From Escherichia coli (GTDB lineage Bacteria; Pseudomonadota; Gammaproteobacteria; Enterobacterales; Enterobacteriaceae): a stretch of DNA of 64,000 bases. Location: assembly GCF_003019035.1 (NCBI RefSeq), contig NZ_CP027447.1; one strand, 5' to 3'. The position numbers and the translations under genes are program-made. Numbering within the stretch: position 1 is the first letter of the stretch; every line of letters begins with the position of its first letter. The notes below the pieces were generated by a model, which was given only the letters and a program-made list of their open reading frames with translations, did no database searches and was not told the DNA's origin. Positions 8,061-62,694 of this stretch are shown piece by piece.

Positions 8061-8065
8061 ATGAC

Positions 8066-19210: not shown

Positions 19211-19221
19211 CCCACCTTTTT

Positions 19222-19515: not shown

Positions 19516-19527
19516 TATTTCCTCCTT

Positions 19528-26037: not shown

Positions 26038-26097
26038 TCCTAACGCTCCATAAACGACAAAACCGCCCGGAGGCGGTTTCACATAAAATATTTTGCA

Positions 26098-26769: not shown

Positions 26770-27410
26770 TTGTCGGTATACCTCTCTCGTTTGCTCAGTT
26801 GTTCAGGAATATGGTGCAGCAGCTCGCCATCACCACAGTAAATGGCGGCATGATTCGGCACCGATGAACCAAAACAGCACAGCAGCACATCGCCCGGTTG
26901 TGCTGATGACAACGGCACCTGATACAGCCCTGTGGCCTCCAGATTATCCAGATAGAGATTCTGACCGTGACGCCACCAGTCATCCTCGCGATGAAAATCC
27001 GGCATCTCAATCCCCGCCAGATGATAAGCATCCCGGAACAGCGTGTAACAGTCCGTCACCCCGTGTTCAAAGCGCCGCCCGGTGAGATGCGGCACACAGC
27101 GGAACTTATGAATCGTCCCCCGGCAGACCAGCCACCACGGCAAATCACTCTGCACCTGCAGCCGCCGGTCAGCCTCACTCAGCCAGGGCAGACCACCGGG
27201 GTGGCTGTGGACCAGCGCCACAATCTCACCCTGCATTTCTGCCTGCAGCCAGTCTTCCGGCGACATACGGAAATACGCCTCCGGCTCACCGGAGATATTC
27301 ACGCAGGGGAAATATCTTTCCCCCTCCGGTGTGCTTACCACGAAGCCGCACGACTCCGCTGGCGCACATCGCCGGGCGTGCGCCAGAATCGCTGATTCTG
27401 TCTGTGTCAT
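26667..27410 (-). CDS. K: Tail assembly protein K (JAMM/MPN plus NlpC/P60 domains)
   Basis: Overlaps I as in lambda; HSHPGG JAMM motif; matches recalled lambda K. Confidence 0.9.
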   Translation of the reverse strand: MTQTESAILAHARRCAPAESCGFVVSTPEGERYFPCVNISGEPEAYFRMSPEDWLQAEMQGEIVALVHSHPGGLPWLSEADRRLQVQSDLPWWLVCRGTIHKFRCVPHLTGRRFEHGVTDCYTLFRDAYHLAGIEMPDFHREDDWWRHGQNLYLDNLEATGLYQVPLSSAQPGDVLLCCFGSSVPNHAAIYCGDGELLHHIPEQLSKRERYTDKWQRRTHSLWRHRAWRASAFTGIYNDLAAASTFV

Positions 27411-27415
27411 GGGAT

Positions 27416-28114
27416 TTACTGCGAAAGTTTGTTAATGGAAAGGAAGCCGCCAAAGTTGCCGACGTTATTGCGGAACTTACAACCGCTCAGGCATTTGCTG
27501 CATTTATCCTTCGTGATATCGGACGTTGGCTGGTCATATTCATCCGCGACAGCCGGACCGCTATAACCGCACTCGTCACCGCGATAGGTCCAGGTGCAGG
27601 TGTTGGCCAGCATGATACGTCCCGGAAAAACAGCGCCATCCGTTTCCGTCGGCGTGGACAGTACAAAGGAGGCACTCACCGCGCTCAGTTCGCTGCACTG
27701 CTCAATGCGCCAGCGGCTGATCACCTCCTGCTCCGGATCGGCGTAACTGTTTCCGTTGACGAAGTTCACCGCATCCAGAAAACGGGCGTAAACCTTACGC
27801 CGGACCACCGTTCCGCCGACCAGACTCTGCATATCTTCCGCCATCCCGGTGACCATACCGTACAGGTTAGAAACCGTCAGCGTGGGGCGCGTACTGGTGC
27901 CTTTGCCATTCAGTTCAAAACCGCTCCCCTGAATGGGATACGGCTGATACTGTCGCCCCTGCCAGGTGACCGGCTCACCTTTTTCGTTCTGCTCATTACA
28001 GAAAAAATAACGTTCTCCACCGACCTCTGTCAGGTCGATTTCCCAGAGCACCACGCTGGCCGACTGCTCCGCACGGGTGCATTCATTCAGTGTTTCCTGC
28101 CGGATATCCTGCAT
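27416..28114 (-). CDS. L: Tail tip protein L
   Basis: 232 aa; matches recalled lambda L. Confidence 0.9.
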   Translation of the reverse strand: MQDIRQETLNECTRAEQSASVVLWEIDLTEVGGERYFFCNEQNEKGEPVTWQGRQYQPYPIQGSGFELNGKGTSTRPTLTVSNLYGMVTGMAEDMQSLVGGTVVRRKVYARFLDAVNFVNGNSYADPEQEVISRWRIEQCSELSAVSASFVLSTPTETDGAVFPGRIMLANTCTWTYRGDECGYSGPAVADEYDQPTSDITKDKCSKCLSGCKFRNNVGNFGGFLSINKLSQ

Positions 28115-28443
28115 CAGTTCACCACCTGTTCAAACTCTGCGCTGAACTCAACACGCAGCATACTGACCCGCGACGACCATTTTGCGCAGGTCACCTTTAT
28201 CTGCCGCCACTCATAAGGCGGCGTCCACAGAAAGGCTTTCCAGCCCCCGTGCTCTTCCAGAAACGACTCCAGTACCGTGGCCTCCTCACGGGGGACAGAA
28301 AGCGTCACGCTGTACGTTTTCAGGTTGGCATTCAGCCCGGCAGGCGCTCGCTGGGAATAGCCATCACCAAAGCGCACCTTTCTTACAGAAGGGGCCGAAG
28401 CCACATCCATACCGGGTTTCACTTTCCAGCGGAAGGTTTTCAT
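28114..28443 (-). CDS. M: Tail tip protein M
   Basis: 109 aa; matches recalled lambda M. Confidence 0.9.
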   Translation of the reverse strand: MKTFRWKVKPGMDVASAPSVRKVRFGDGYSQRAPAGLNANLKTYSVTLSVPREEATVLESFLEEHGGWKAFLWTPPYEWRQIKVTCAKWSSRVSMLRVEFSAEFEQVVN

Positions 28444-31019
28444 CGTCCACCTCCGGAGAACAGGCCACCATCACGCATCTGTGTCTGAATTTCATCACGG
28501 GCACCCTTGCGGGCCATGTCATACACCGCCTTCAGAGCAGCCGGACCTATCTGCCCGTTCGTGCCGTCGTTGTTAATCACCACATGGTTATTCTGCTCAA
28601 ACGTCCCGGACGCCTGCGACCGGCTGTCAGCCAGACTGCCCGGTGTACCGACATAACCACCGGTGGCATAGCCGCGCATCAGCCGGTAGAGATTCCCCAC
28701 GCCAATCCGGCTGGTTGCCTCCTTCGTGAAGACAAATTCACCACGGTGAACAATCCCCGCTGGCTCATATTTGCCGCCGGTTCCCGTAAATCCTCCGGTT
28801 GCAAAATGGAATTTCGCCGCAGCGGCCTGAATGGCTGTACCGCCTGATGCGGATGCGCCGCCACCAACAGCCCCGCCAATGGCGCTGCCGATACTCCCGA
28901 CAATCCCCACCATTGCCTGCTTAAGCAGAATTTCTGTCATCATGGACAGCACGGAACGGGTGAAGCTGCGCCAGTTCTGCTCACTGCCGGTCAGCATCGC
29001 TGCCATATTCTGTGCAATACCATCAAAGGTCTGCGTGGCTGCACTTTTTACCTGCGACATACTGTCCGTGGCGCTCTCTTCCCACTCACTCCAGCCGGAC
29101 TTCAGGCCTGCCATCCAGCTCCCGCGAAGCTGGTCTTCAGCCGCCCAGGTCTTTTTCTGCTCTGACATGACGTTATTCAGCGCCAGCGGATTATCGCCAT
29201 ACTGTTCCTTCAGGCGCTGTTCCGTGGCTTCCCGTTCTGCCTGCCGGTCAGTCAGCCCCCGGCTTTTCGCATCAATGGCGGCCCGTTTTGCCCGTTGCTG
29301 CTGTGCGAATTTATCCGCCTGCTGCGCCAGCGCGTTCAGGCGCTCCTGATACGTAACCTTGTCGCCAAGTGCAGCCAGCTGGCGTTTGTACTCCAGCGTC
29401 TCATCTTTATGCGCCAGCAGGGATTTCTCCTGTGCAGACAGCTGGCGACGTTGCGCCGCCTCCTCCAGTACCGCGAACTGACTCTCCGCCTTCCACAAAT
29501 CCCGGCGCTGCTGGCTGATTTTCTCATTTGCTCCGGCATGCTTCTCCAGCGTCCGGAGTTCTGCCTGAAGCGTCAGCAGGGCAGCATGAGCACTGTCTTC
29601 CTGTCGATCGCCTGCAGACACTTTCACGCCGGACTGCTTCGGCTTTTTCAGCGTCGCTTCATAATCCTTTTTCGCTGCCGCCATCAGCGTGTTGTAATCT
29701 GCCTGCAGGATTTTCCCGTCTTTCAGTGCCTTATTCAGTTCTTCCTGACGGGCGGTATATTTCTCCAGCGGCGTCTGCAGGCGTTCGTAAGCCTTCTGCG
29801 CCTCTTCGGTATATTTCAGCCGTGATGCCTCAGACTCGGCCCAGTCCTTTGCTGCCATCTCTCTGGCCTTTTCAAGATCGGCCTGCAACGTGGCGGCTGA
29901 AAGCCCAAGTTGCGCATTCGCTCTGTCCTCCCATGCTCCCCGGAGATTGGCAAGAAATGCGGATGTTTTACCGCGCCGGTGGCTCCGGCTCTGATACCAC
30001 TGCCATTTTTTGTCCGCCTCATCAAAAGCCTTTTCTGCTTTCTCCAGCATTTCCCGGGCAGTGTCCGGGCGACCAATATCCAGCACCGAATCCCACATGG
30101 ATTTGAATGCCCGTGCTGTCCTGTCTGCCCAGGTCTCCAGCGTGCCCATGTTCTCTTTCAGGCGGCGGGTCTGGTCATCAAACCCTTTCGTTGCGGCCTC
30201 GTTCGCCGCCTGCAATGCCCCGGCTTCATCTCCGGAACGCTGCAACTGAGCAACATACGCAATCTGCTCCGCCGTCACGTTATGGAACTGACGTGCCATC
30301 GCTGTCAGTCCCGACGTCGGGTCTGTGGTCAGCTTCCCGAAGGCTTCAGCGACCTTGTCCACCTCCACGCCGGATGCAGAGGAGAAACGCGCCACACTCT
30401 GGCTGATCGCCTCAAACTGCTCACCACCACGCACACCGGCATTCACCAGCGCCGTCAGTGACTCGCTGGTCTGGTTAAACGTCAGCCCTGCCGCCTGCCC
30501 GGCTCTGGACAGGGCCAGAATACGATCTGCCGTCAGTCCCGCCTGATTGCCGGAAAGGACCAGCGTTTTGTTGAAATCGGACAGGGTTGAGTTGCCCTGA
30601 TACCAGGCATACGCCAGCGCACCGGTCGCCACCGCCAGCGAGGTGGCCCCCACCATCGGCAGGGTGATCGCACCGGCAAGCCCCCTGAACATGGGGATCA
30701 TCCCGCCGAAGGAGTCCTTAACCTGACCACCCTGTTGCAGCAGGATCAGCCACGGACTTTGCCCGCCTGCAAGCTGCGTGGCCACGTCGGTGAACTGTGC
30801 AGGCAGCATACGCATGGCGGCTTTGTACTGCCCGACGGAAATCCCCGCTTTCTGTGCAGCCAGCGCCTGTCGGCTCAGCGACTGTTCAACGACTGCCGCT
30901 GTTTTTTTCGCATCACTTTCCGTACCGGAAAAATGACGCCTGACTCTGGCCATCTGCTCGTCAAATCTGGCCGCATCCAGACTCAAATCAACGACCAGAT
31001 CGCCTACCGGTTCAGCCAT
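28440..31019 (-). CDS. H: Tail tape measure protein H
   Basis: 859 aa; matches recalled lambda H. Confidence 0.9.
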   Translation of the reverse strand: MAEPVGDLVVDLSLDAARFDEQMARVRRHFSGTESDAKKTAAVVEQSLSRQALAAQKAGISVGQYKAAMRMLPAQFTDVATQLAGGQSPWLILLQQGGQVKDSFGGMIPMFRGLAGAITLPMVGATSLAVATGALAYAWYQGNSTLSDFNKTLVLSGNQAGLTADRILALSRAGQAAGLTFNQTSESLTALVNAGVRGGEQFEAISQSVARFSSASGVEVDKVAEAFGKLTTDPTSGLTAMARQFHNVTAEQIAYVAQLQRSGDEAGALQAANEAATKGFDDQTRRLKENMGTLETWADRTARAFKSMWDSVLDIGRPDTAREMLEKAEKAFDEADKKWQWYQSRSHRRGKTSAFLANLRGAWEDRANAQLGLSAATLQADLEKAREMAAKDWAESEASRLKYTEEAQKAYERLQTPLEKYTARQEELNKALKDGKILQADYNTLMAAAKKDYEATLKKPKQSGVKVSAGDRQEDSAHAALLTLQAELRTLEKHAGANEKISQQRRDLWKAESQFAVLEEAAQRRQLSAQEKSLLAHKDETLEYKRQLAALGDKVTYQERLNALAQQADKFAQQQRAKRAAIDAKSRGLTDRQAEREATEQRLKEQYGDNPLALNNVMSEQKKTWAAEDQLRGSWMAGLKSGWSEWEESATDSMSQVKSAATQTFDGIAQNMAAMLTGSEQNWRSFTRSVLSMMTEILLKQAMVGIVGSIGSAIGGAVGGGASASGGTAIQAAAAKFHFATGGFTGTGGKYEPAGIVHRGEFVFTKEATSRIGVGNLYRLMRGYATGGYVGTPGSLADSRSQASGTFEQNNHVVINNDGTNGQIGPAALKAVYDMARKGARDEIQTQMRDGGLFSGGGR

Positions 31020-31446
31020 ACCGGACTCCTCCCGCGATCCCTTCTGATACTGTCATCAGCATTACGTCATCCTCCGTCATGTCCGCCACATCCGGGGAAG
31101 CGGGGATAACTTCATTCCCGTCCGGGCCAAAACGAACGCCTCCGGCAAGCCCTGCCGCTTTCTGCATCAGCACATCATCTTCAGGCTCTTCGTCAGCCTC
31201 GCGCCGGTTCAGCAGACTGAAATCCAGCGGATGCATATCCGGATCGCTGAAAAACAGGCTGAGCACGGTGTACGTCAGCCCGGAAAAGTGCATATCCAGC
31301 AGAACATCATGAAAATAATGGGTACTGTAAAAGCGGTGCCAGTCGGCATACTCCGTGGATGACATCCCGGCAAGCATGGCGCGCCAGTCGGGTCGCCCCA
31401 TCTCACGCGCCAGTTTCAGGGCAAAACTCAGCTCACCGTCGAACAC
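31012..31446 (-). CDS. T: T portion of the G-T tail assembly chaperone (expressed by -1 frameshift from G)
   Basis: ORF in the -1 frame begins at the slippery site at the end of G; matches recalled lambda T. Confidence 0.8.
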   Translation of the reverse strand: MFDGELSFALKLAREMGRPDWRAMLAGMSSTEYADWHRFYSTHYFHDVLLDMHFSGLTYTVLSLFFSDPDMHPLDFSLLNRREADEEPEDDVLMQKAAGLAGGVRFGPDGNEVIPASPDVADMTEDDVMLMTVSEGIAGGVRYG

Positions 31447-31850
31447 TTTCCCGCAGAAACAGGCTCTGCAGGCCCGGCGTCCTCTGCCTGTTCAGGAGCA
31501 TCATTCACCACAAACTCAGACATACCGGACAGCCGGTACACCACGTTTTCAGCATGAGAAATTGCCTCTGTGGGCCAGGTGGTAAGCACTTCCTGCTCAA
31601 TCTGTTTAACGGCTTCATTCATGGACGGCATCTGCGTCTTCTGCGGATGGTTATGCCACAGGGACATCGCCACCAGAAACGCGCCGGTTCTGATGGCGTC
31701 TTCCACAGTAAACTTCCGGTTGCTGTCTGACTCCGCCTGTTCTGCCTGCCGTTTCATCAGGGCGAGATGCTCAATGCGCTGCAGGGCTGACAGTTCAGAA
31801 AGCGTGACGGTCACACCGTTATGTTCAAATGATTCGGTTTTCAGGAACAT
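31428..31850 (-). CDS. G: Tail assembly chaperone G
   Basis: 140 aa; matches recalled lambda G. Confidence 0.9.
   Translation of the reverse strand: MFLKTESFEHNGVTVTLSELSALQRIEHLALMKRQAEQAESDSNRKFTVEDAIRTGAFLVAMSLWHNHPQKTQMPSMNEAVKQIEQEVLTTWPTEAISHAENVVYRLSGMSEFVVNDAPEQAEDAGPAEPVSAGKCSTVS
31446..31452 (-). promoter_or_regulatory. Programmed -1 ribosomal frameshift slippery heptamer G GGA AAG (G to G-T)
   Basis: Minus strand reads ...TCT GCG GGA AAG TGT TCG... in the G frame; same heptamer as the lambda G-T frameshift site. Confidence 0.75.
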
Positions 31851-31865
31851 CGCTGACTCTCCGGA

Positions 31866-32606
31866 TTAACTGGCGGTGACGGTAATTTCTGCAACCGCAG
31901 CAAACTCACCATTACCGGATACAACCGGAATGTTGACCTTGCCTGCAGCAACGCCGTTCACGGTGATGGTCATACCACTGACCGACACGGTGGCTTTTGT
32001 TTTATCCGCAGACACCGCACGAAAGCTCTTGTCGGTTACACCCTCCGGCTGGAAGGCCACGGTCAGCGTGGTGCTCTGCCCTTTCACCACCGAGGTGCTG
32101 GCAGGCGTCACGGTCATGCCGGTTGCCGCTGTTACCGTGCTGCGATCTTCTGCCATCGACGGACGTCCCACATTGGTGACTTTCACCGTGCGGGTGATCA
32201 CTTCCTTCGCCGTCACCGCCTTACCGATACTGCTGACCCAGCCACGGAACACATCGACCGTGCCGTTCGGGAAGCGGATTTTATAGGCACGGGTATCGCC
32301 TTCATTAAACCACGCCAGCAGCGCCTGCTGCCCCTGCTCTCCGGGCATCCACGCCAGCGTGAAGCTGGTATCTCCGGCAGATTTCTGCCCCTGCCCGGTC
32401 GCAGTCCAGTCTGCATCTTCATCATCGAGATAGCTGTCGTCATAGGACTCAGCGGTCAGTTCGCCGGGCGTCAGGTCTTTAACTTTTGCCAGACGCGACC
32501 AGTCAACGTCTGAAAGCGGATTCGCATAAGGGTCACCGCTCCCCTTATAAACCCACAGGGTGGTCCCGGCCCCTTTCACCGGCATTGTAGGATTTGGTAC
32601 AGGCAT
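31866..32606 (-). CDS. V: Major tail tube protein V
   Basis: ORF 31866..32636; from [22 protein letters not shown] matches recalled lambda V, including the C-terminal Ig-like domain. Confidence 0.9.
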
Positions 32607-32613
32607 AGCGTCC

Positions 32614-33009
32614 TCACATTTCATAGGTAATGACATAAGTCAGATCGGCTGAACTCCACAGGCCCGCATCATCGTCGCGCCGGTAGTCATAGCCGCTGGC
32701 CACCATACTGGTGATCAAATCTGACAGTGCCGGGATATCGCTCATCACCGGATAAATCCGGGACTCCATCCACGCATCCAGCTCTGAATCCGGCACCTGA
32801 GCAGGCAGGAAAACTTCGATATGCAGCTCCGCCTGCCAGGTATCGCTGTCCAGCTCTTCGCCCGTGTATTCAGCGCCGGTGAGATAAACGGCAACTGCCG
32901 GAAAATCCGCCTCATCAAAAACAGCGGGGCGACCATCAAAAAACGTCGCCCCGGTGTCATGCTTCTCCAGTGCATCCAGTACGGCTGCACGGAGTTCAGT
33001 ATGTTTCAT
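32614..33009 (-). CDS. U: Tail terminator protein U
   Basis: 131 aa; matches recalled lambda U. Confidence 0.9.
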
Positions 33010-33584
33010 CGCTTTATTACCATCCTCAGTTGATGCTGCAGCGCATAGCCCAGCTCTTTCGGAAGACGTTCACGCCGTATCCGCTCAATATTTTGTTTAA
33101 ACGCCGTGGTCAGCGGCACCGCCATCGGGATTTTCACCACATCAATGGGGTAACGGTTTTTCCCGGCCACACGCTGCATGACATGCCACCGGCCATTTTT
33201 CAGTTGCTGAATAAACGCGCCGGGAATACGACGGTTACCCACCACAAGCACGCTGCCGCCACCTTTCAGGGATGAACGCTGCCCCTTTTTACGACGCCTG
33301 CGGCGCGAAAGGACAACCCGCGCATTACCCAGCTTGATTACGGGCAAATCCCCCCGGTTAACTTTGATTCTGGCCTGCGGATTTTTGACCGTGGCCCTTT
33401 TCAGCCTGGCCCTTTCCTTTACCAGTTTCCGGCGTACCTTTGTCTCACGGGCAACCTGTGACGCCGACTGCGATATCGCGGATGAAGCAACGCGGTTAAT
33501 GGCCATTGCGGCGGCACCAGGCACCGCCGTTTTGCTGATACGGCTGAGGTTTTCAACGGCCTGCTCAAGACCTTTTATGGCCAT
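33006..33584 (-). CDS. Z: Tail completion protein Z
   Basis: 192 aa; matches recalled lambda Z. Confidence 0.9.
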   Translation of the reverse strand: MAIKGLEQAVENLSRISKTAVPGAAAMAINRVASSAISQSASQVARETKVRRKLVKERARLKRATVKNPQARIKVNRGDLPVIKLGNARVVLSRRRRRKKGQRSSLKGGGSVLVVGNRRIPGAFIQQLKNGRWHVMQRVAGKNRYPIDVVKIPMAVPLTTAFKQNIERIRRERLPKELGYALQHQLRMVIKR

Positions 33585-33595
33585 ACATCCCCCTT

Positions 33596-33949
33596 TCAGC
33601 GGCGACGGTTAACGGCAGGCGGTACGCCCCGTCCAAGCCAGAGATGACAACTTCCGCCATCATCCGGCGAAACCCGATCTACCCAGAAATTTTCCTCACC
33701 GATGGTCAGCGTGTCTCCACGCCGCAGCTGCCGCACCTCATCAGTCCGGACAAACAGGGACGGGCTGGAGCCTTCAACACGCACGCCCTGTCCGGCATAG
33801 CTGATATTTTCAGGATCATCAAAAACACCACGTATCACAGCACCGGACTGCTCACCGGATGTCATGGTGGCTGACGTTCCCATGTACCCGCGTATCGTTT
33901 CATCGGCGCGGGCAATGGCAGCATCGAACAGGTTATCGAAATCAGCCAC
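33596..33949 (-). CDS. FII: Head-tail connector protein FII
   Basis: 117 aa; matches recalled lambda FII. Confidence 0.9.
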   Translation of the reverse strand: MADFDNLFDAAIARADETIRGYMGTSATMTSGEQSGAVIRGVFDDPENISYAGQGVRVEGSSPSLFVRTDEVRQLRRGDTLTIGEENFWVDRVSPDDGGSCHLWLGRGVPPAVNRRR

Positions 33950-33960
33950 AGCGCCTCCCG

Positions 33961-34356
33961 TTATTGCATTCTGGCCAGGCCGCGCTCTGTCATTTCAGCT
34001 GCCACACCGGCAGAGACACGGAACGCCGTTCCCGGCAGCACAAATGCCACAGCCTCATCCCGCGTGGCGTGAAGTGCATCAGTATGCAGCGTCACCAGTG
34101 CCACAACCGTGACCAGATCAGCCGTATCAGTCACGGTATCCGGCTGCGCTGATACCACCTCATTTTCATGTCCGGTCAGCGCATTTTCCGGGCTGACAGA
34201 TGTGTCCTGACCAGCAGCGTCATCCGTGTCATCAAGCTCCTCTTCCAGCTCTGCCACACGGAGTGCCAGTTCTTCTTTCGTCCCCGTCAGGCTGACATCA
34301 CGGTTCAGTTGCTCACCCAGCACCTGAAGACGGGCAATCAGTTCATCTTTCGTCAT
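33961..34356 (-). CDS. FI: DNA packaging protein FI
   Basis: ORF 33961..34395; from MTKDELIARLQVLGEQLNRDVSLTG matches recalled lambda FI. Confidence 0.85.
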   Translation of the reverse strand: MTKDELIARLQVLGEQLNRDVSLTGTKEELALRVAELEEELDDTDDAAGQDTSVSPENALTGHENEVVSAQPDTVTDTADLVTVVALVTLHTDALHATRDEAVAFVLPGTAFRVSAGVAAEMTERGLARMQ

Positions 34357-34397
34357 GGACTCCTCCACAGAGAGAAAATGGCCCCGAAGGGCCATGA

Positions 34398-35423
34398 TTA
34401 CGCCAGTTGTACGGACACGAACGCATCAGGGTCAGCCAGCAGCATCAGCGGTGCTGACTGAATCATGGTGAACTCACGCGCCGGATCGCCGGTGGTCACC
34501 CAGTTTTTCGGGTAGCGGGCAGAGGCGTTAATACCTTCGCGCTGTGCGTCCGCATCCTGAATGCAGCCATAGGTGCGCAGACCGCGTGCCTGAGTGTTCC
34601 CCAGCACCATCGTGTTGTCCGGCAGGAAGTTCTTTTTGACGTCGTTTTCCACGTACTGTCCGGAATACACGACGATCGCCGTATCGCCATACATCCCCTT
34701 ATAGGACACCGCTTCGCCCAGGTCTTTTACCGCTGTCTCCAGCTCGGAATTAGAGCCGCGACGGGTATCCAGCTTCTCCTTGACGGCTTTGAAGGAACGG
34801 AACAGCGCCCAGCCTTTCGGATCAAACACGATGATATTCACCACACCGCTGGCGTTCAGCGCGTAGGCTTCGATATCGTCGGTCGGGTCATACGTGGACT
34901 TGTCACGCTTGCTCCACTCCGTACCGCCGGACTGCGTGATGTTGTTCGCCACACTGCGGCCCATATCCACTTCAACCGGATCGAAGGCTTCACCGGTCAT
35001 GGTATATTTGCCCTTAAGCACGGCAGAAACGGCCTGCATCTCTTCGACCTGAGCAATGGCCAGCTCTTCGTCTCGCATGTTCTGCAGGATGATGCGACGG
35101 CGGCGGTAAGCCGGGTCCGCCAGATTCTGTGGATCTTCATCCGGCAGGCGACGCAGGGTCATCTGCGGATTCACCTCATGCTTAGGCTTGACATATCCCG
35201 GTGTAAATTCAGAGGTGGAGCCGCCACGGGAGCGGATAACCTCACCGGAAACAATCGGCGAAACGTACAGCGCCATGTTTACCAGTCCCGGAATTTGTGA
35301 GAGATAGACTTTCTCCGTGGTGAAGGGATAGCTCTCACGGAAAAAGAGACGCAGAAACAGCGGATCAAACTTAAATTTCTTCTCATTTGCCGCCAGCAGC
35401 TGGGCGGTTGTGTACATCGACAT
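34398..35423 (-). CDS. E: Major capsid protein E
   Basis: ORF 34398..35450; from MSMYTTAQLLAANE matches recalled lambda E. Confidence 0.9.
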   Translation of the reverse strand: MSMYTTAQLLAANEKKFKFDPLFLRLFFRESYPFTTEKVYLSQIPGLVNMALYVSPIVSGEVIRSRGGSTSEFTPGYVKPKHEVNPQMTLRRLPDEDPQNLADPAYRRRRIILQNMRDEELAIAQVEEMQAVSAVLKGKYTMTGEAFDPVEVDMGRSVANNITQSGGTEWSKRDKSTYDPTDDIEAYALNASGVVNIIVFDPKGWALFRSFKAVKEKLDTRRGSNSELETAVKDLGEAVSYKGMYGDTAIVVYSGQYVENDVKKNFLPDNTMVLGNTQARGLRTYGCIQDADAQREGINASARYPKNWVTTGDPAREFTMIQSAPLMLLADPDAFVSVQLA

Positions 35424-35478
35424 AAAAAAATCCCGTAAAAAAAGCCGCACAGGCGGCCTTTAGTGATGAAGGGTAAGG

Positions 35479-35811
35479 TTAAACGATGCTGATTGCCGTT
35501 CCGGCAAACGCGGTCCGTTTTTTCGTCTCGTCGCTGGCAGCCTCCGGCCAGAGCACATCCTCATAACGGAACGTGCCGGACTTGTAGAACGTCAGCGTGG
35601 TGCTGGTCTGGTCAGCAGCAACCGTCAGAATGCCAACGGCAGCACCGTCGGTGGTGCCATCCCACACAACCAGCTTACGGGTGGAGGTGTCCAGCATCAG
35701 CGGGGTCATTGCAGGCGCTTTCGCACTCAATCCGCCGGGCGCGGTTGCGGTATGAGCCGGGTCACTGTTGCCCAGCGGCTGGTAATGGGTAAAGGTTTCT
35801 TTGCTCGTCAT
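35479..35811 (-). CDS. D: Head decoration protein D
   Basis: ORF 35479..35817; from [12 protein letters not shown] matches recalled lambda D. Confidence 0.9.
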
Positions 35812-35820
35812 AAACATCCC

Positions 35821-37120
35821 TTACACTGGTGTGTTCAGCAAATCGTTAACGGCATCAGATGCCGGGTTACCTGCAGCCAGCGGTGCCGGTGCCCCCTGCA
35901 TCAGACGATCCAGCGCAGTGTCACTGCGCGCCTGTGCACTCTGTGGTGCTGCGGCCAGAATGCGGCGGGCCGTTTCCACGGTCATACCGGGGGTTTCTGC
36001 CAGCACGCGGGCCTGTTCTTCGCGTCCGTGAGCTTCCTCACAGTTGAGGATCCCCATAATGCGGCTGTTTTCTGCCGCAACCGCAGCGGTGATCTGCGCG
36101 TTCACGTCCGGCTGCGCCGCGCTGGCGTTTTCGCCCTCCGTCGCTTGCACCACGTCAGTAACATCAGCCTGCGAAGCAGTGGCTGAAACAGTTGTTGATT
36201 GAGTCTCTTTGGTCATTCGCCCTCCTGAGAGACGGGATTTACGTGCATCCAGTGCATCACGCATAACGGTGATCGCATCGGTGCTGTTGACAAGTTCATC
36301 AGCCAGTCCGGCATCAATGGCCTCCTGACCGCTGTACACTGCAGCCTCGGTATCCAGCACAGCCTGCACGGACAGGCCGGTATATGCCGACACCTTCTGC
36401 GCAAACATCCGGCGGGTTGCGTCCATCCGGGACTGCAGTGTCTCCCGGACGTCATCCGGAAGATGGCTGTAGGGGTTGCCATCCACCTTATGGCTGCCGC
36501 TGTAAATCAGCGTGATTTCCACACCCTGTTTCTCCAGCGCAGCACCGTAATTACTGTGAGCCATCATGACGCCGATGGAGCCTGTCCGGGCGGTCTGCGT
36601 GACCAGACGCCGGGAGGCGGCACTGGCAAGCAACTGACCTGCACTGCAGTTCATGTCGTTGGCAAGCGCCCATACCGGTTTTATGTCACGCACACGGGCG
36701 ATGATGTCAGCGCAGTCAAATGCCCCCGCCACCATCCCGCCGGGCGTGTCCATATCGAGCAGAATGCCGTCCACCATCGGGTCGCTGGCAGCCTGTTGCA
36801 GACGGGCGATAATGCCGTTGTAACCGGTCATCCCCGAATACGGCTGCAGCGCTCGCGTCCGACTAACCAGCGTGCCGGACACCGGCAGCACGGCGATGCC
36901 GTTCATGACCTGATAACTGCGGGCCTGTCGTGGTCCGTCATCATCAACGGATAACGCCAGCGCCGCGGGTGCCTCTCCGGCAGTCAGGCTGTCGCCGGAT
37001 ACCGCATCCGTCAGGCGGCTGATCCCAAGCTGGCCTGCAAGCGCACAAAAGAAAACCCGCGCATAGGCGGGTTCAAGCATCAGCGGCTCATTAAAGGCCA
37101 TACTGGCAATATGCGGGAGA

Positions 37121-37140
<20 letters not shown>
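35821..37140 (-). CDS. C: Head maturation protease C (ClpP/S49-like) with nested in-frame scaffold protein Nu3
   Basis: ORF track extends to 37275, but GTG at 37140 preceded by aggagaag gives VTAELRNLPHIASMAFNEP, matching the recalled lambda C start. Confidence 0.85.
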
Positions 37141-40821
<3,681 letters not shown>

Positions 40822-40847
<26 letters not shown>

Positions 40848-41367
40848 TCAGCAACCCCGGTATCAGTTCATCCAGCGCGGCTGCTTTGTTCATGGCTTTG
40901 ATGATATCCCGTTTCAGGAAATCAACATGTCGGTTTTCCAGTTCCGGAAAACGCCGCTGCACCGACAGGGGAATCCCGTCGAGAATACTGGCAATTTCAC
41001 CTGCGATCCGCGACAACACGAAAGTACAGAATGCGGTTTCCACCACTTCAGCGGAGTCTCTGGCATTCTTCAGTTCCTGTGCGTCGGCCTGCGCACGCGT
41101 AAGTCGATGGCGTTCGTACTCAATAGTCCCTGGCTGGAGATCTGCCTCGCTGGCCTGCCGCAGTTCTTCAACCTCCCGGCGCAGCTTTTCGTTCTCAATT
41201 TCAGCATCCCTTTCGGCATACCATTTTATAACGGCGGCAGAGTCATAAAGCACCTCATTACCCTTGCCACCGCCTCGCAGAACGGGCATTCCCTGTTCCT
41301 GCCAGTTCTGAATGGTACGGATACTCGCACCGAAAATGTCAGCCAGCTGCTTTTTGTTGACTTCCAT
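40822..41367 (-). CDS. Nu1: Terminase small subunit Nu1
   Basis: 181 aa; matches recalled lambda Nu1. Confidence 0.9.
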
Positions 41368-41369
41368 TG

Positions 41370-41600
41370 CTCATTCCACGGACAAAAACAGAGAAAGGAA
41401 ACGACAGAGGCCAAAAAGCTCGCTTTCAGCACCTGTCGTTTCCTTTCTTTTCAGGGGGTATTTTAAATAAAAACATTAAGTTACGACGAAGAAGAACGGA
41501 AACACCTTAAACCGGAAAATTTTCATAAATAGCGAAAACCCGCGAGGTCGCCGCCCCGTAACCTGTCGGATCACCGGAAAGGACCCGTAAAGTGATAATG
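41370..41600. other. Lambda-type cos region (cosB, cosN at 41545-41556, cosQ)
   Basis: Plus strand carries aggtcgccgccc (reverse complement of the lambda 12-nt cohesive end GGGCGGCGACCT) flanked by sequence I recognise as the joined lambda left and right ends. Confidence 0.85.
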
Positions 41601-41755
41601 ATTATCATCTACATATCACAACGTGCGTGGAGGCCATCAAACCACGTCAAATAATCAATTATGACGCAGGTATCGTATTAATTGATCTGCATCAACTTAA
41701 CGTAAAAACAACTTCAGACAATACAAATCAGCGACACTGAATACGGGGCAACCTC

Positions 41756-41989
41756 ATGTCAACGAAGAACAGAACCCGCAGAACAACAACCCGCAACATC
41801 CGCTTTCCTAACCAAATGATTGAACAAATTAACATCGCTCTTGAGCAAAAAGGGTCCGGGAATTTCTCAGCCTGGGTCATTGAAGCCTGCCGCCGGAGAC
41901 TGTGCTCAGAAAAAAGAGTTTCTTCTGAAGCAAACAAAGAAAAGAGTGACATTACTGAATTGCTCAGAAAACAGGTCAGACCAGATTGA
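41756..41989 (+). CDS. Hypothetical ribbon-helix-helix (Arc/CopG-like) protein in the lambda right-end region
   Basis: 77 aa; TRNIRFPNQMIEQINIALEQKGSGNFSAWVIEACRRRL fits the RHH beta-strand/helix pattern. Confidence 0.5.
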   Translation: MSTKNRTRRTTTRNIRFPNQMIEQINIALEQKGSGNFSAWVIEACRRRLCSEKRVSSEANKEKSDITELLRKQVRPD

Positions 41990-43184: not shown

Positions 43185-43455
43185 GATGTTACCGTAGTAT
43201 GTGAGTATCCATCGAATAGACACCAAGCAAAAAAGCTCCCGAAGGAGCCTTCATTTTCACTTTTTTAAATCCAACGACAGACGGCTGGCATTTAAGTATT
43301 GTGAAATATTATCAAATGTAATCATCATTGATTTACAAAAGATACATTTTGCCCCGAAAGGATTCATGTCAGAAACATCAAAAGATGATGTTCTATACTG
43401 GGAACCATGACAACACGGGCATCTAAAGTGAATATGGTTTGTAATATTGTCTACC

Positions 43456-43668
43456 TCAAAGCGCCACTACATGAACAGCGGCAGGACCTTTAGGTCCGTT
43501 CTCAATACCAAATTCAACTTCCTGATTCTCAGTTAATGTTTTGAAATCGTTGCTCTGAATTGCTGAGAAATGGACAAACACATCTTTGCTGCCATCTTTC
43601 GGCGTGATGAAACCAAAACCTTTTTCAGGGTTAAACCATTTCACTAAACCAGTCATTTTGTTAGACAT
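43456..43668 (-). CDS. cspI: Cold shock protein CspI
   Basis: 70 aa CspA-family protein with RNP motifs KGFGFI and VFVHF; matches recalled CspI. Confidence 0.85.
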
Positions 43669-44030
43669 AATTATTACCTTTTGAAGAAATTAGCCCTTGG
43701 GCAGAATGGTCCGAAAAAAAATATCAGAGAGAAAAACCAACAAGGAAATCTCAAGAGGTACAAATAATAAAATTATAACAATGACTGCTTCAGATAAATT
43801 TGTAACAAACCAGAACACCATTAACGCATGATTAACCACCCATAGCAAGGATTACTTTTGTAAAGAAAAACACAGCAATGAAAGAATAGCTTTATTTATT
43901 AATAAAACGTGTCATTCTGATTAAGACCTTTTATCTTACCCTTAAGATTTCAGGAATTTTGGCTCATGGAAGAGTCCTTTTTATTTAAATTTTACATTCC
44001 GCGATGTAAATGTTCCGATTTAATATTACC

Positions 44031-46052: not shown

Positions 46053-46339
46053 GGGTTTGAGATTGTGGTGCTTTTTGTGGGAGTCATCCACTTACGCACT
46101 TTGTTTTGCCATGCCAGCAGTTAGCTTCTGCTGTAAAACTATTCATGCAGCAAACCTGCACTTCACCACAATGGTTAGCATACTTTTCCTGATTAAGATT
46201 TTGCCAAATATGCTAGCCATTGTTTCATGTATTGGACCTCCTTACTTTTTATTAAAGAGATCCAATATTCACTACTCTGTCCGTATCTCTACTCAGGCAT
46301 CAGCCTTCTTCGTTATCGTATACAGACGAGCGATGAATT

Positions 46340-46555
46340 TTAATCAGTAATGATGACATTTGCTGCTGCAGGACCTTTAGCACCACTCTCTATAGAGAAG
46401 GTAACCTTTTGACCTTCAAATAAGGTTCGATAATTATCATTCTGAATCGCAGAAAAATGCACAAACACATCTTTACTACCATCAACAGGAGAAATAAAGC
46501 CGAAACCTTTATCAGCGTTAAACCATTTTACTAAACCAGTCATTTTATTTGACAT
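46340..46555 (-). CDS. cspB: Cold shock protein CspB
   Basis: 71 aa CspA-family protein; matches recalled CspB. Confidence 0.85.
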
Positions 46556-46855
46556 TCTACATTCCTTAACTTGAGCCTTTCGGCATAAATGGTTTGCATA
46601 ACAGAAACGACTTCGTACTTAATTGGAGAGACTCAAAGAAGGAATAAGTGAATAACACCTGAAATGAGAACTGCTTTAGTAAACTACTTCGTATATCGTC
46701 TGTTCTTCAAACCGACGCAATCATTAACGCATAGTTGAACATATGAAGCAATGTTTATTTTAGACATCCAGCCATCTTCAACCCCATCAAAAAACTATAG
46801 CTTTCTTCAGGAACGTGTGTATAGTGCGCCAAGTTATCAGTATTAAGGAATTTTT

Positions 46856-48255: not shown

Positions 48256-49344
48256 TTACGCCAGTACGCCAATTGTCAGCGCGCGATCGATAAAACGAAA
48301 TATCAGCTCCAGTTGGGAGCCATACTTATCTTCAAATGCCACTGTATCCGTATGCAGCTCGTTGTGATGCTTTCTGCACAAAGGCAACACAAAGAGATCA
48401 TGTGCTTTTGTTCCCATTCCGCCCTGCCCGTGACCAATCAGATGATGCGGATCGTCGGCTGGCATACCGCAGCAAGCACACGGCTGTGTCTTAACCCAAC
48501 GTGTGTATTTCTCCTTAACCCAGCGGCGACGTTTAGGCAGCTTCATGAAAGATTCCGGAGACTCTGGATCAACGGTGATGCTTACCACCGTCTTTTCCTG
48601 TGGTGATTTTTGTTGCTGGTGGGCGTAAGGCAACGGTGCAAGATTTTTTGTGCGTTGTTTCAATATGCTGGTGGCGGTCTGCTCTCCCGGTACGATGTCG
48701 CTTTCGCGGTACACCGAGCAGATTTTTTCCGCTGGTAATCCCAGCGAACGACGCGATACAGCCTCAGGTAGTGCATCCACCACCTGATTGCAGACCGCCC
48801 ACCAGGATAATTCAGCCAAAGATAATTCCCGCTCCTGCGTACCGCTTATTGCGTGACGGATGACGTCAATCACCCATGCTGTCAGATTTTGTTGAGCAAG
48901 CAGCTCCAGTGATTCCGATGTCTGGTCACGCAGTTGGTTGTCGCAGTGCCAGCACAACACCATTGCGCCGGTACCATAACGGTGAATGACTGTTTCAGTG
49001 TGATGGTAATCGCCATTAGGCCACTGGCAGGATGTAACATGACGTAATAGCCAGTCAGACAATGCGCCAACGCCGCCAGCAGCACGAATCACCCGTTCGT
49101 TACTAAAAAACGGCAGCAATGTTTTGTCTTCCGCCAGCGGCTGGCGAACGGCAGGAACGACTCCGGATGGCAGATTACGCATGCTTTTTGGTTCCGGTTC
49201 CACCAGCACTCGAGGATTATGAAATATCTGTATGGATTCACGGCCCGGCTTAAGGACCACCAGCCCAAGCTCAGGCACCAGAACAGGTCTAAGTAATACC
49301 CGCACGTTACCTCCAGATCCGTTGCTGGAAAGTGCGGGACGCAC
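48256..49344 (-). CDS. ydfU: Prophage protein YdfU (DUF968)
   Basis: 362 aa ORF; C-terminal CACCGMPADDPHHLIGHGQGGMGTKAHD cysteine/histidine cluster; start uncertain (overlaps the upstream 92 aa ORF). Confidence 0.7.
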   Translation of the reverse strand: MRPALSSNGSGGNVRVLLRPVLVPELGLVVLKPGRESIQIFHNPRVLVEPEPKSMRNLPSGVVPAVRQPLAEDKTLLPFFSNERVIRAAGGVGALSDWLLRHVTSCQWPNGDYHHTETVIHRYGTGAMVLCWHCDNQLRDQTSESLELLAQQNLTAWVIDVIRHAISGTQERELSLAELSWWAVCNQVVDALPEAVSRRSLGLPAEKICSVYRESDIVPGEQTATSILKQRTKNLAPLPYAHQQQKSPQEKTVVSITVDPESPESFMKLPKRRRWVKEKYTRWVKTQPCACCGMPADDPHHLIGHGQGGMGTKAHDLFVLPLCRKHHNELHTDTVAFEDKYGSQLELIFRFIDRALTIGVLA

Positions 49345-51825: not shown

Positions 51826-53674
51826 AGTTAACATTACAAGATATAAGTAATGGACGCACTCCCAATTAGTCTATTTAAATCGCCACGAGTTTAACTGACA
51901 ACCCATGATCAATTATGAATTGCAACTATTTCTGTAGTCACTTTTGTGGGGACAGTCCACAAAACTGCCAACTTCCGCTTCTTGCTCTTAGCGGACATTA
52001 GCATAGGCTATTTACCATAACGCCTCATTACGCGCACCGCCCAGACTGACTCAGCGCGTTTCTGGCATATCCCCGGTAAAACAAGTAACAAACCACCCGA
52101 AAATGAACACCAGAAACGCGACTTAAGAATCTACCCTATGAATGGATATGCACTCAACCGAATCGATCTTGGTTTCAATCTTTTTTATCGGGATCAGGCT
52201 TCTTTTTAGGTAACTTCGGGGGCTTAACTTGCTGATGACTTTGCGTTCGGCGCGTAAGCCAGGGATGGTCAGCTTTAGGTTTAACATAGTATTTTGAGCG
52301 TAAATCAATACGGGCATTATCCACTCGTTCATGGACACTCTTTTCATCATCCAGTGGTATAGGCTCCGGGCCATCAACATACTTTTCCCAGCCCAGCGCT
52401 TTCCCGTCATACAGAACGTTAATTTCACCGTCAAAGTTCTCGCATACAGTAACAACCGAATGCCTAAGTCGATATCCCCGGCCCTCACTGCGTACCTGAA
52501 ACGCACTGCTTTTGTACTGGAAAGTGAGATTTTTAGACAGAACGCGCTTCGCCTGTAGGCTGAAGATATAACCCAGTTCCTCTTCAGAATGGTGCACATC
52601 AAGATGAGCATTATCAGTAGTACGAGGCGACGTAGCGAACCGGTTGTTATAGGCTTCAATAAAGGTCGGCAACCATGCATTTGCTGTTTCAATATCACTG
52701 ATATTCTGAAGCCGCATTTCTTTGACCAGCCTGTCCTGTAGTGTCTGATTGGCGCGCTCTACCCGCCCTTTTGCCTGCGGGCTGTTGGCATGGATTGGCT
52801 CGATGCCCAGTGTCTTTATCGCACGAGTGAACTGGGTCAGCTCACCTTCCCGCTCTGGGTTATTTACCCTGAATATACTGTGTCTATCAGAGTAGAGAGC
52901 GAGCGGTACGCCATGATCATTAAGGTAACCCCGGAGGGTTTCCATGTAAGCCCGGGTTGTTTCAGCAGGCACAAAACGCAACGCCATCAACGCACTGGTG
53001 GCATCATCAATGAAAACGATCAGTGTACATCTGGGGCCTCGATTTTCAAACCAGTCATGAGGTGAGCCATCAATCTGGATCAGTTCACCGTAAGATGGTC
53101 GTCGCATGCGGCGTTGATATATACGGGCAATTTTACGACGGCGTTCACGCCATAACCCCTCTTCTATCATCCACTTTCTGAGAGTTTCAACGGATAAAGA
53201 TAAACCGTGTATCTCGCGCAATTTTTCGCACGCAAACGTAGGTCCAAAATCAGCGTAACGGCCTTTGAGGAGTGAAATTACTGTTGCTCTGAATTCAGTA
53301 GAAAAGGAATTATTAGGACGCTTTCCACGTCGGTGGGAAACCAGACCAGAAGGCCCTTCATTTCTATACCGTTGCACCAGACGTTTAACCTGCCGAATAG
53401 AAATGCCAATGCGTGCCGCAGCTTGTTCCTGAATAATCTGAAGTCGGTGGAGTTCCTTATGACTCATCGTAACAGTCTCTTTGATCATGAAAAATCCCCC
53501 AGAGAATTGTCTGGGGACATTTTAGAATGGTTCAAAGGGGACATTACAGCTTGGTGTTAACAATAGCCTGCTTCTCCGTGCCTTTCGGCACGTAAGAGGC
53601 TAACCTACATGTGTCTAGCATGAAATTGGCCTCAGATTAATGTTAAGCGTCTTGCAGGACGCGTAATGTTAACT
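51826..53674. mobile_element. Insertion sequence (family uncertain, IS481/ISNCY-like); boundaries tentative
   Basis: Single 437 aa DDE transposase ORF flanked by a 12-bp perfect inverted repeat agttaacattac (51826-51837) / gtaatgttaact (53663-53674); no clear target-site duplication seen. Confidence 0.35.
52175..53488 (-). CDS. DDE transposase with N-terminal HTH and rve-type integrase core
   Basis: 437 aa; HTH near N-terminus (IGISIRQVKRLVQRY); catalytic-triad candidates in IQIDGS, YSDRHSIF and KGRVERANQTL. Confidence 0.8.
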   Translation of the reverse strand: MIKETVTMSHKELHRLQIIQEQAAARIGISIRQVKRLVQRYRNEGPSGLVSHRRGKRPNNSFSTEFRATVISLLKGRYADFGPTFACEKLREIHGLSLSVETLRKWMIEEGLWRERRRKIARIYQRRMRRPSYGELIQIDGSPHDWFENRGPRCTLIVFIDDATSALMALRFVPAETTRAYMETLRGYLNDHGVPLALYSDRHSIFRVNNPEREGELTQFTRAIKTLGIEPIHANSPQAKGRVERANQTLQDRLVKEMRLQNISDIETANAWLPTFIEAYNNRFATSPRTTDNAHLDVHHSEEELGYIFSLQAKRVLSKNLTFQYKSSAFQVRSEGRGYRLRHSVVTVCENFDGEINVLYDGKALGWEKYVDGPEPIPLDDEKSVHERVDNARIDLRSKYYVKPKADHPWLTRRTQSHQQVKPPKLPKKKPDPDKKD

Positions 53675-53822
53675 GGGGCTTTTCTCTATCTGCCGTTGGT
53701 GTCCATGCCCGAGGCAGATAGCCTCAAGCACCCGCAGTCATTCTACTTAACTAAGATTTCCCCGCAAACCGTTTTTGTCCAGCACAGTAAATATCCAACT
53801 AAACCAATGGAGTTCGCTGTAT

Positions 53823-54041
53823 TTACCGCCAGTATTCAATGCACATGACCGCCATGAACACCCCTAAAAAAAGGGCATTTATATATCCAAATATTAATAT
53901 CAAAACATCAACTTTTTCCATATACCTTGCTGTGAAGATGATGGGCATACATGATGCGAACAACCAGAACGCAACAAACAAAAACTGCAATGCGTTTTTC
54001 ATTATTCCTCCTACAATCAATGTGCAATTACATTTAAACAC
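53823..54041 (-). CDS. Hypothetical small membrane protein (two predicted TM helices)
   Basis: 72 aa ORF (likely start MKNALQFLFVAFWLFASCMPIIF...); AT-rich codon usage unlike the flanking phage genes. Confidence 0.4.
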   Translation of the reverse strand: MFKCNCTLIVGGIMKNALQFLFVAFWLFASCMPIIFTARYMEKVDVLILIFGYINALFLGVFMAVMCIEYWR

Positions 54042-54433
54042 ACCTCAATTTGGCCGGACATATAAATATCTAAACCAGAAAAAATCACTTACATAGCGTT
54101 ACAAACTCTTTAGTCTAAAGGTTCATCGTAAAACATTCCCCATACTTATCAGTCCGTTCCGCGCCAGGTAGCTCATTGCCTTATCTGGCAACCTGTAATC
54201 AGGTTTCCGCTTTTTCAGTTGGCTGGTCGTTTAACCGACATAGTTAATCCATTAATCTAGTTGCCGGATGTTGGTGGATTTTCGCGTTTTAGTTGTTCAT
54301 AAAAGTGCACAGCTTTAACCAGTTCTTCTGATGTAACTGGGACTGGTGAGGCAGTGAATAAGGCCTGAATTTGATAGTTCGGCCTGTCGTTACAATCCTC
54401 TTTTTTCGGTACATATTTCCAGTCACCAGACCA

Positions 54434-54892
54434 CTACTTCCCCTGAAAGTCCGTAACGCCTTTTTTCACGTAGCGATATCGCCATGCCACTGGTTTTGCT
54501 TGCCCCGCCGTTTCATGCCCTTCCTGATAATTAATCTCGCTCATTCATCGCCCCACTCATCACAATATGCTTCGACCGGAGTTTTTCCCGCTTCATAGTC
54601 ATCACGCTAGGATTCGACATCAGCAGCACTTCCACCGCGTAACTCACCATAGTCCATTAATAGTTCATCCCGCTCTTCAAAACTGATGTTATATTTAGCT
54701 GAACAAAAATCAGCCACTTTGTTCTTCCTCATCGTCTTTTATTTCGTGGTATGAGTAATTGCAGTAGTTAAAGAAAATTTCTTATGCTCCGTCATGAATT
54801 TCCTCAGGTGTTGCGTCATCGTCCACTTCGAATACATCCTCAAAATCTCCACCAGCTATTCCCGTTTCAATAATAATTTTGAACTTTCGCAT
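54434..54892 (-). other. Cluster of tiny overlapping ORFs (23-41 aa) in shifting frames; probably decayed gene(s)
   Basis: Hand translation gives 36, 41, 23 and 36 aa ORFs at 54782-54892, 54607-54732, 54531-54602 and 54434-54544; an alternative frame across the second gap reads protein-like DDYEAGKTPVEAYCDEWGDE; SD sequences are weak. Confidence 0.3.
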
Positions 54893-55154
54893 TTCACTAC
54901 CGCCCTTTCGGGCGGCCTCCTGATGTTCTGAGGGTGCAGAAATCCATCCGGTTAAGGATTAAATTTTATTTACAGAACTGAATTTAATTATTCAGATATA
55001 CGTATCTGTAGCCTTACGAATCTACTCACTGGATGCCTCTTTCATAAAAATAATCCAGTGGGTTTTATCGTTTTTTCCCTGTTCGTTGACAGATAACAGG
55101 TTTTCTGTCTGTCAGTGCCAGAATCTGGCTTACCGGTATTTGCGTTTCATTCCA

Positions 55155-55511
55155 TTAAAAAATCAGAACGCCGTGCGGCCTCAACACCCGAAAGGCTTCT
55201 TTAAATCTCTGTCGCGAATCATCACGCCAGGCATCTTTATTCAGCCGTCCATATTTCTTTCCCATCCAGGCGTTATCACCAACACTCTCAAGATGCGGAG
55301 GGTCTAATACAACCATCGAAAAAGATGCGTCTGCAAATGATAATGCACGAAAATCTGCGATAATGTCAGGGCTGATAATCAAGCGTCTCCCATTGCGTAA
55401 TGTGTATCCTTCTTTTCTGATATCGCTGAATATCGCCCGTTCGTCAGACTTATCGAACCAGAACATGCGGCTGCCACAGCACATATCAAGAATGGTTGCC
55501 GGTGCACTCAC
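55155..55511 (-). CDS. SAM-dependent methyltransferase-like protein (motif I and DPPH motif IV), possibly truncated
   Basis: 118 aa; ILDMCCGSR resembles SAM-binding motif I and VVLDPPH resembles the D/N-PP-Y/F/H motif IV of amino-methyltransferases; too short for a complete DNA MTase. Confidence 0.45.
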   Translation of the reverse strand: MSAPATILDMCCGSRMFWFDKSDERAIFSDIRKEGYTLRNGRRLIISPDIIADFRALSFADASFSMVVLDPPHLESVGDNAWMGKKYGRLNKDAWRDDSRQRFKEAFRVLRPHGVLIF

Positions 55512-55930
55512 TGCGCCACGTCCTGAAAATTACCCTGATAGAAAGCCAGTATGCGCTGCATAACTTCGCTCTTCCGGCACTCGCGACAGATTATGTTTAG
55601 GCGACTGTCGTAGCGACGTATTTCTCCGTCAGGTGATGACCAGATAAGGTCCGGATCAACCACAGCAGGTTTCTTCACCTTTGCCCTCGAGAGTTTTTTG
55701 CGGGCGTTTTGCCAGTCCTTACGCGCCTGTTCAGAGGGGAATAACCCGTAGCCGGAGTTGTATACATCGCCACTGGCTACCAGCTCTCTGGCAAGAACGC
55801 TCATCAGATATCTAGTCGCACCTGTTTTAGCTTCCAGTTGCCGTAACGTCTCACGGCCGCTCTGGCGCACGAGTTCCACCACCTGCCATTTAATTTTTTC
55901 CCGCTCTTCTTGTGTAAAAACTTTTGCCAC
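55508..55930 (-). CDS. Hypothetical protein (early-region, possible DNA-binding)
   Basis: 140 aa; basic; CRECR near C-terminus; stop overlaps the start of the methyltransferase-like ORF. Confidence 0.5.
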   Translation of the reverse strand: MAKVFTQEEREKIKWQVVELVRQSGRETLRQLEAKTGATRYLMSVLARELVASGDVYNSGYGLFPSEQARKDWQNARKKLSRAKVKKPAVVDPDLIWSSPDGEIRRYDSRLNIICRECRKSEVMQRILAFYQGNFQDVAQ

Positions 55931-55970
55931 AAGTCCCCCTTAAAATTACCTCATGACCTGAAATCAACAC

Positions 55971-59183: not shown

Positions 59184-59236
59184 TTTCTGGTGACGTTTGG
59201 CGGTATCAGTTTTACTCCGTGACTGCTCTGCCGCCC
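59184..59236 (+). ncRNA. dicF: DicF small RNA (ftsZ-targeting antisense sRNA)
   Basis: tttctggtgacgtttggcggtatcagttttactccgtgactgctctgccgccc followed by ttttt matches the 53-nt DicF sequence I recall. Confidence 0.85.
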
Positions 59237-62351: not shown

Positions 62352-62423
62352 TGTTCAACTGTCGCCGGTTGTGACTGGTATTCTGCAACCGGCGCTCGTC
62401 TGATGTAAGAGATAAAGAAATCG

Positions 62424-62675: not shown

Positions 62676-62694
62676 CTAAAAGCCACACTAACTA

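Follow-up and report, generated by a model that had tools for sequence, protein, structure and literature searches.

A lambda-type cos site directly upstream of Nu1 in a Qin-locus prophage of Escherichia coli

A cos site found inside a prophage raises the question of whether it still serves as the packaging signal of a phage or has merely outlived one. We considered this question for a 64,000-nt stretch of the E. coli contig NZ_CP027447.1 (assembly GCF_003019035.1; the whole stretch is hereafter called the window), in which an earlier note had pointed to an intact lambda-type cos and had proposed that the element carrying it can still package DNA. Our reading, to which we assign a probability of roughly 0.88, is that this site is a true cos with the packaging specificity of lambda, in the order cosQ-cosN-I2-cosB (R3-I1-R2-R1), which lies in a full-length prophage of about 47 kb at the Qin locus and is used for the propagation of that phage. 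The site is very probably functional, but there is nothing new about it.

The 12-nt lambda cohesive-end sequence, GGGCGGCGACCT, is present as a single exact copy in the 64-kb window, at 41545-41556 on the minus strand. When up to two mismatches were allowed, the 12-mer gave 4 matches in the window against 3.98 expected, and alone it is not significant; the 48-nt block that covers cosQ and cosN and reaches into I2 (41539-41586) equals lambda exactly and had no match in 100 shuffles. A pattern search for the R core GTTTCCKTTCT found exactly three copies in the 64 kb, all within cosB (0.10 expected by chance), at 41493-41503 on the minus strand, 41438-41448 on the plus strand and 41392-41402 on the minus strand, which is the lambda order and orientation of R3, R2 and R1. 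The R2/R1 inverted repeat was also recovered independently by a repeat search, which in addition gave a second, weaker 18-nt pair (72% complementary); the direct-repeat search missed R3, and the R cores were located by the pattern search instead. Searches of the 64 kb with the 12-mer and the 48-nt block found no second cos.

The cos was compared with lambda (NC_001416, genome ends joined) by global alignment, in which lambda positions up to bp 137 are converted to window coordinates by subtraction from 41557, and those from bp 139 onwards by subtraction from 41558. In this alignment, the 336 bp of window 41557-41892, cosQ included, agree with lambda 48502-48167 at every position (100%), and window 41556-41368 departs from lambda 1-190 only by C53T, A73G, T102C, a missing G138 and A188G. 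A complete lambda-type cos is located at 41392-41586 on the minus strand, directly upstream of Nu1 and between the lysis/moron region and that gene, the normal place for such a site. The earlier note had recognized a cos just upstream of Nu1 from its cohesive-end, cosB and cosQ sequences, and the lambda alignment confirms it; the interval that it had proposed, 41370-41600, holds every cos subsite, to which we add the minus-strand orientation that had been left unstated.

On the minus strand, the 7-bp cosQ (GGGTCCT; lambda 48473-48479), the subsite for the termination of packaging (PMC4669245), occupies 41580-41586, upstream of cosN at the lambda spacing; it is identical to lambda and invariant in 7 of the 7 sequences of the cos alignment that cover it. 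cosN, defined as the 12 bp together with 2 flanking bp on each side (PMC9026076), is an exact match at 41543-41558 (minus strand) that is unique in the window; its flanks are identical to lambda, and the 12-nt sequence sits within the partly symmetric cosN. Based on the published nick positions (PMC9026076), cleavage is predicted between 41557 and 41556 on the minus strand (the lambda top strand) and between 41545 and 41544 on the plus strand. The I2 spacer (lambda bp 18-50; 41507-41539, minus strand), which sets the distance between cosN and cosB and in which bp 30-35 are critical (PMC4856287), is lambda-identical without indels. Since lambda bp 13-52 are identical in the window and free of indels, the distance from cosN to R3 is kept; changes of at least 3 bp in this spacing are deleterious (PMC9026076).

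Within cosB, only three substitutions separate the window from lambda: C53T (41504), A73G (41484) and T102C (41455). The first falls in R3 (lambda bp 50-65; 41492-41507, minus strand), the putative critical site for TerS (gpNu1). TerS contacts bp 55-63 of R3, a segment defined by NMR, and bp 56, 58 and 59 are critical (PMC9026076); bp 55-63, including these three positions, are those of lambda. C53T is thus within the nominal R3 but outside the contact segment, and the base that it alters is the same in R1, R2 and R3 of lambda. The second substitution is in I1 (lambda bp 65-90, following the segment definition of PMC4856287; 41467-41492, minus strand), a putative IHF site with an intrinsic bend. 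The best matches to the IHF consensus, at lambda 91-79 (one mismatch) and 86-74 (two mismatches), are both unchanged, and bp 73 lies outside both. T102C is positioned between I1 and R2. R2 (lambda bp 109-124; 41433-41448, plus strand), a putative inverted TerS site, and R1 (lambda bp 151-166; 41392-41407, minus strand), a putative accessory TerS site, are both lambda-identical; the two share a 16-bp sequence (Feiss and colleagues: PMC4669245, PMC4856287, PMC9026076), with R2 inverted relative to R3 and R1. In total, cosQ, cosN, I2, R3 bp 55-63, R2 and R1 are base-identical to lambda. A188G (41370) is outside cos, three bases ahead of the Nu1 start codon.

The differences from lambda recur in other phages. 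We aligned eight cos sequences in all, including six phage genomes from the phage collection, and 53T, 73G, 102C, the missing G138 and 188G were found to co-occur in phages 1H12 (NC_049947), the record of which starts at the cohesive end, and PhiR29_1 (PV340556). The cosB of both phages differs from that of the window by one extra change, T85A, and PhiR29_1 also has changes flanking cosQ that are absent from the window. Phage 2H10 carries 53T, 73G and 102C, and phage Kati carries 73G. The exact cosB haplotype of the window was not found in the phage collection, in which the closest phages are the two that are one base away; the cos region is 100% identical in E. coli XJ34, XJ6-3, GF131 and NCTC9082. 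Across the eight aligned regions, variation avoids cosQ, cosN, R3 bp 55-63, R2 and R1, which is the pattern expected under selection on those subsites. The earlier note had named mismatches in cosN or in the sites for terminase and IHF as the observation that would speak against an intact cos. cosN is unchanged, whereas bp 53 in the nominal R3 and bp 73 in I1 do differ; both changes are also carried by 1H12, PhiR29_1 and 2H10.

The reference lambda sequence (NC_001416/J02459) has a G at position 138 that is missing from the window, where it would fall between 41420 and 41419, and all six aligned natural phages lack it as well; resequenced lambda records show higher identities, which suggest that it is missing there too. 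As this base is missing from the six phages and apparently from resequenced lambda, G138 is probably an error or peculiarity of the old lambda reference rather than a change in this prophage.

The proteins expected to act on this cos are encoded next to it. Nu1 (the small terminase, TerS; 181 aa; 40822-41367, minus strand) starts at 41367, equivalent to lambda bp 191, and differs from lambda only by L132I. The recognition helix (17-24) and the wing (31-39) fall within residues 1-70, all of which are unchanged from lambda, and L132I is outside both elements. A (the large terminase, TerL; 641 aa; 38922-40847, minus strand) is full length and 99.2% identical to lambda gpA, from which it differs by D185E, T450I, I459V, T466I and T628A. 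The first four of these are each present in one or another of the deposited phage genomes compared; T628A (codon 38964-38966) was found in 0 of 50,697 phage records, the best match covering 79 of 80 residues, and gpA identical throughout, T628A included, is encoded in the prophages of NCTC9082 and GF131. Residue 628 is in the C-terminal tail, which presumably docks on the portal, and T628A is the single sequence-level caveat on the packaging proteins. The head genes W, B (portal), C/Nu3, D and E (major capsid) at 34398-38925 and FI, FII and the tail genes Z through J at 22570-34356, all on the minus strand, are full length and without stops, with amino acid identities to lambda of 96-100% and 84-100%, respectively. 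Over window 23541-41556, the nucleotide identity to lambda 18002-1 is 97-98%. The earlier description of the terminase, portal and capsid genes as intact therefore holds at the level of the sequence, as Nu1 through J are full length without stops and two deposited phages (PhiR26_1 and ev099) encode a 100% identical Nu1; its proposal that the element is able to package DNA is supported to the same extent.

These genes belong to a whole lambdoid prophage at the Qin locus, on the minus strand from 17060 to the window end at 64000. By comparison with the record of phage PhiR42_1, the attR junction was placed between 17059 and 17060 and attL about 27 bp past the end of the window, which gives a prophage length of about 47.0 kb, near the 48.5 kb of lambda. 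The integration site between ydfJ' and rspB is that of K-12 Qin, as judged from GF131, NCTC9082 and the K-12 annotation, and the prophage has pinQ, ydfK, nohA/Nu1, ynfO, ydfO, csp genes, relBE, dicABCF and intQ in common with K-12 Qin. Within our E. coli collection, window 1-25000 was best matched by GF131 (99.2% identity). Lambda-like sequence is limited to the cos flank and the module from Nu1 to J. No match in the window was found for lambda int, xis, N, cI, cro, cII, P, S, R or Rz, and lambda O and Q are only about 33% identical to their window counterparts. That the element might be phage lambda itself or a DE3 prophage was rejected on the ground that its early region is unrelated to lambda. 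The element is instead a full-length Qin-type lambdoid mosaic with a lambda-like morphogenesis module.

What K-12 Qin retains, cosQ and cosN among it, matches the window at 99.8-99.9% identity. K-12 Qin lacks window 19203-40839 (21.6 kb), 52359-57159 (4.8 kb) and 60646-62831 (2.2 kb), the first of these absences leaving nohA fused to the tail-fibre region, and its cosB has G54A in R3 and three further changes. Since K-12 is near-identical over what it retains and the three stretches are gone, the window holds a full-length form of Qin, of which K-12 Qin is a deletion derivative. All of the approximately 28.6 kb missing from K-12 Qin is kept in the window, the prophage corresponds to phage PhiR42_1 gene by gene, and the cryptic, defective state was not found here.

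A near-identical relative of the element is deposited as a phage isolate. This is PhiR42_1 (PV340562; its host is recorded as ECOR13), for which the identity is 99.9% across window 41601-64000 and 99.0% across window 30045-64000, and which has the same Qin-type genome organisation from int to pinQ. Its excisionase, exonuclease, DicA-type repressor, DicC-type Cro, YdaT-like protein, O-like initiator, Q, holin, lysozyme and Rz-like protein are 100% identical to those of the window, and its integrase is 99.8% identical. No paper describing the isolation of the PhiR phages was found in the literature searched, and their viable status rests on GenBank records. Given how closely the prophage matches a deposited phage isolate, the cos is very probably functional, and the element is most likely a live lambdoid phage of which the own terminase cuts the cos. 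The earlier note had further spoken of helper-dependent mobilisation. No helper seems to be needed, given a full-length prophage with early, regulatory and lysis proteins identical to those of PhiR42_1.

Along the alignment with PhiR42_1, identity is about 100% over 41676-64000 and falls to 97-99% from 41675 leftwards, a part that comprises the cos and the late genes. This places a mosaic junction at window 41675-41750, about 120-190 bp on the cosQ side of cosN, which fits the reported clustering of recombination junctions beside cos (PMC3945230).

On the tail-fibre side, the Stf gene of the window is divergent, only its N-terminal 253 aa aligning to PhiR42_1 Stf, at 61%, and Tfa is reduced to its last 36 residues (window 19095-21833); in PhiR42_1, unlike the window, Stf and Tfa are full length. 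The stf and tfa region adjoins the pinQ invertase gene (18404-18991). The divergent Stf and truncated Tfa are the only structural deficit of the prophage. Lambda PaPa is itself mutated in stf, and inactivation of stf and tfa improves growth in soft agar (PMC3945230).

Against our reading stands the suggestion that a defective prophage has kept the cos as a relic, comparable to those beside nohA in K-12 Qin and nohD in DLP12; the element itself would not use it, and it would be only a target for the terminase of an infecting lambdoid phage or for recombination with that phage. The element is at the Qin locus, and what K-12 retains of that locus is nearly identical to the window, as a relic would have it; however, the window retains the 21.6, 4.8 and 2.2 kb stretches that are missing in K-12. 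The NCTC9082 prophage, which is 98.8% identical to that of the window, is annotated with a transposase remnant and two small pseudogenes, but the same remnant is present in the deposited PhiR42_1 genome. A truncated Tfa and the documented recombination of lambda with the cos region of a cryptic prophage (PMC3945230) could likewise be accommodated by a relic, whereas an intact set of head and tail genes and the near or complete identity of the PhiR42_1 integrase and early, regulatory and lysis proteins could not easily be. We therefore regard a relic as unlikely.

It is also conceivable that the cos works in a weakened form, with C53T and A73G lowering its affinity for terminase and IHF such that packaging becomes IHF-dependent or low in yield, as in the lambda R3 bp 58 mutant. 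The conservation of C53 in all three lambda R elements, and the effects on packaging of single R3 changes at bp 56, 58 and 59 (PMC9026076, PMC4669245), lend some substance to this idea, which we nevertheless hold to be highly improbable: bp 53 is outside the contact segment, bp 73 is outside the best IHF-consensus matches, 53T and 73G are found together in three phages (1H12, PhiR29_1 and 2H10), and IHF is only accessory for lambda, about 30% of the yield being kept without it (PMC4856287). Lambda-like phages share cosQ and cosN and differ in the specificity of cosB (PMC4669245), so that lambda cohesive ends could in principle go together with a packaging specificity of the phage 21, phi80 or N15 type. 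This is scarcely credible here, as the R3, R2 and R1 cores and the first 70 residues of Nu1, with the recognition helix and wing, are those of lambda; the phage 21 and N15 specificities were rejected because the R cores and the recognition helix are lambda's. The points that weigh against a genuine cos in use by its own phage are a gpA substitution seen in no phage record, a change at a conserved base of R3, the truncated Tfa with a divergent Stf, and the dependence of the PhiR phages' viable status on GenBank records.

If the cos is indeed used by its own phage, the sequence of events can be sketched by analogy to the lambda paradigm; induction, binding of TerS and IHF, and cleavage are here what we infer. 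The lysis genes, moron genes, cos and Nu1-J are contiguous in the prophage, and upon induction, Q-dependent late transcription would proceed from these lysis and moron genes over cos to Nu1-J. The genome would be excised and replicated into concatemers, gpA would become positioned on cosN, and it would nick both strands with a stagger of 12 nt at the predicted positions given above. Terminase would then remain on the cosB end and dock on the portal gpB, DNA would be pumped in from the Nu1 end, that is, toward lower window coordinates, and packaging would stop at the cosQ and cosN of the next cos. The layout of the cos, taken together with the full-length prophage around it, suggests that the site serves the propagation of the phage itself.

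Mobilisation of the flanking chromosome, which the earlier note had also raised, appears weaker than it implied. Packaging can start; the window holds one cos, and a terminase of the cos type completes packaging only at a second cos, as DNA protruding from the capsid blocks tail attachment (PMC6687093). Because a single cos starts but cannot finish packaging, mobilisation of the chromosome needs aberrant excision or a second cos. The realistic routes are specialised transduction after aberrant excision, and recombination of the cos/packaging region with infecting lambdoid phages, the latter being documented for DLP12, with junctions clustering beside cos (PMC3945230). We consider it very unlikely that, upon delayed or failed excision, terminase would cut the cos within the chromosome and pump one way toward lower coordinates, a process that would resemble lateral transduction or the classical lambda 'docL' heads. 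If this did occur, in-situ packaging would run from 41556 through 24.5 kb of late genes and then through at most about 25 kb of chromosome below 17060, comprising ydfJ', ydfI, rspR, ydfG, dcp, dgcZ, eamA, a PTS/porin cluster and beyond, and mature particles would form only if there were, within one capsid length, a further cos of like orientation, such as that of another lambdoid prophage.

The presence of a lambda-type cos here is already known, textbook lambda biology. Sequence resembling the 1.7-kb cos region occurs in 4706 of 5426 complete E. coli genomes, which makes the site an ordinary one, and beyond annotation it has little importance. It does indicate that the prophage is probably a live phage and not a relic of the Qin kind, and this bears on predictions of inducibility, on specialised transduction of the ydfJ or rspAB flanks, and on the exchange of packaging modules with infecting lambdoid phages, for which recombination near cos is documented (PMC3945230). 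The window can also serve as a full-length reference for reconstructing the decay of K-12 Qin.

Several smaller features were observed along the window. A transposase remnant, assigned to the ISNCY family in the NCTC9082 annotation, is located at 52178-53488 between the replication genes and ydfW; this annotation gives the remnant and two small pseudogenes in the region, and the PhiR42_1 record has an identical remnant. Matches at the Rfam gathering threshold comprise the DicF sRNA (59185-59236, plus strand), a sok antitoxin RNA (53562-53733, minus strand), cspA-type thermoregulator leaders upstream of cspI and cspB (43429-43814 and 46324-46716, both minus strand) and, in the flanking chromosome, STnc560 (7988-8201, minus strand). 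ynfO (DUF3950, 77 aa; 41756-41989, plus strand) starts within the part of the window that matches the lambda right end base for base, where lambda has an unannotated 64-aa ORF (48303-48109, minus strand) homologous to the ynfO product; the two products have their first 49 residues in common and then diverge.
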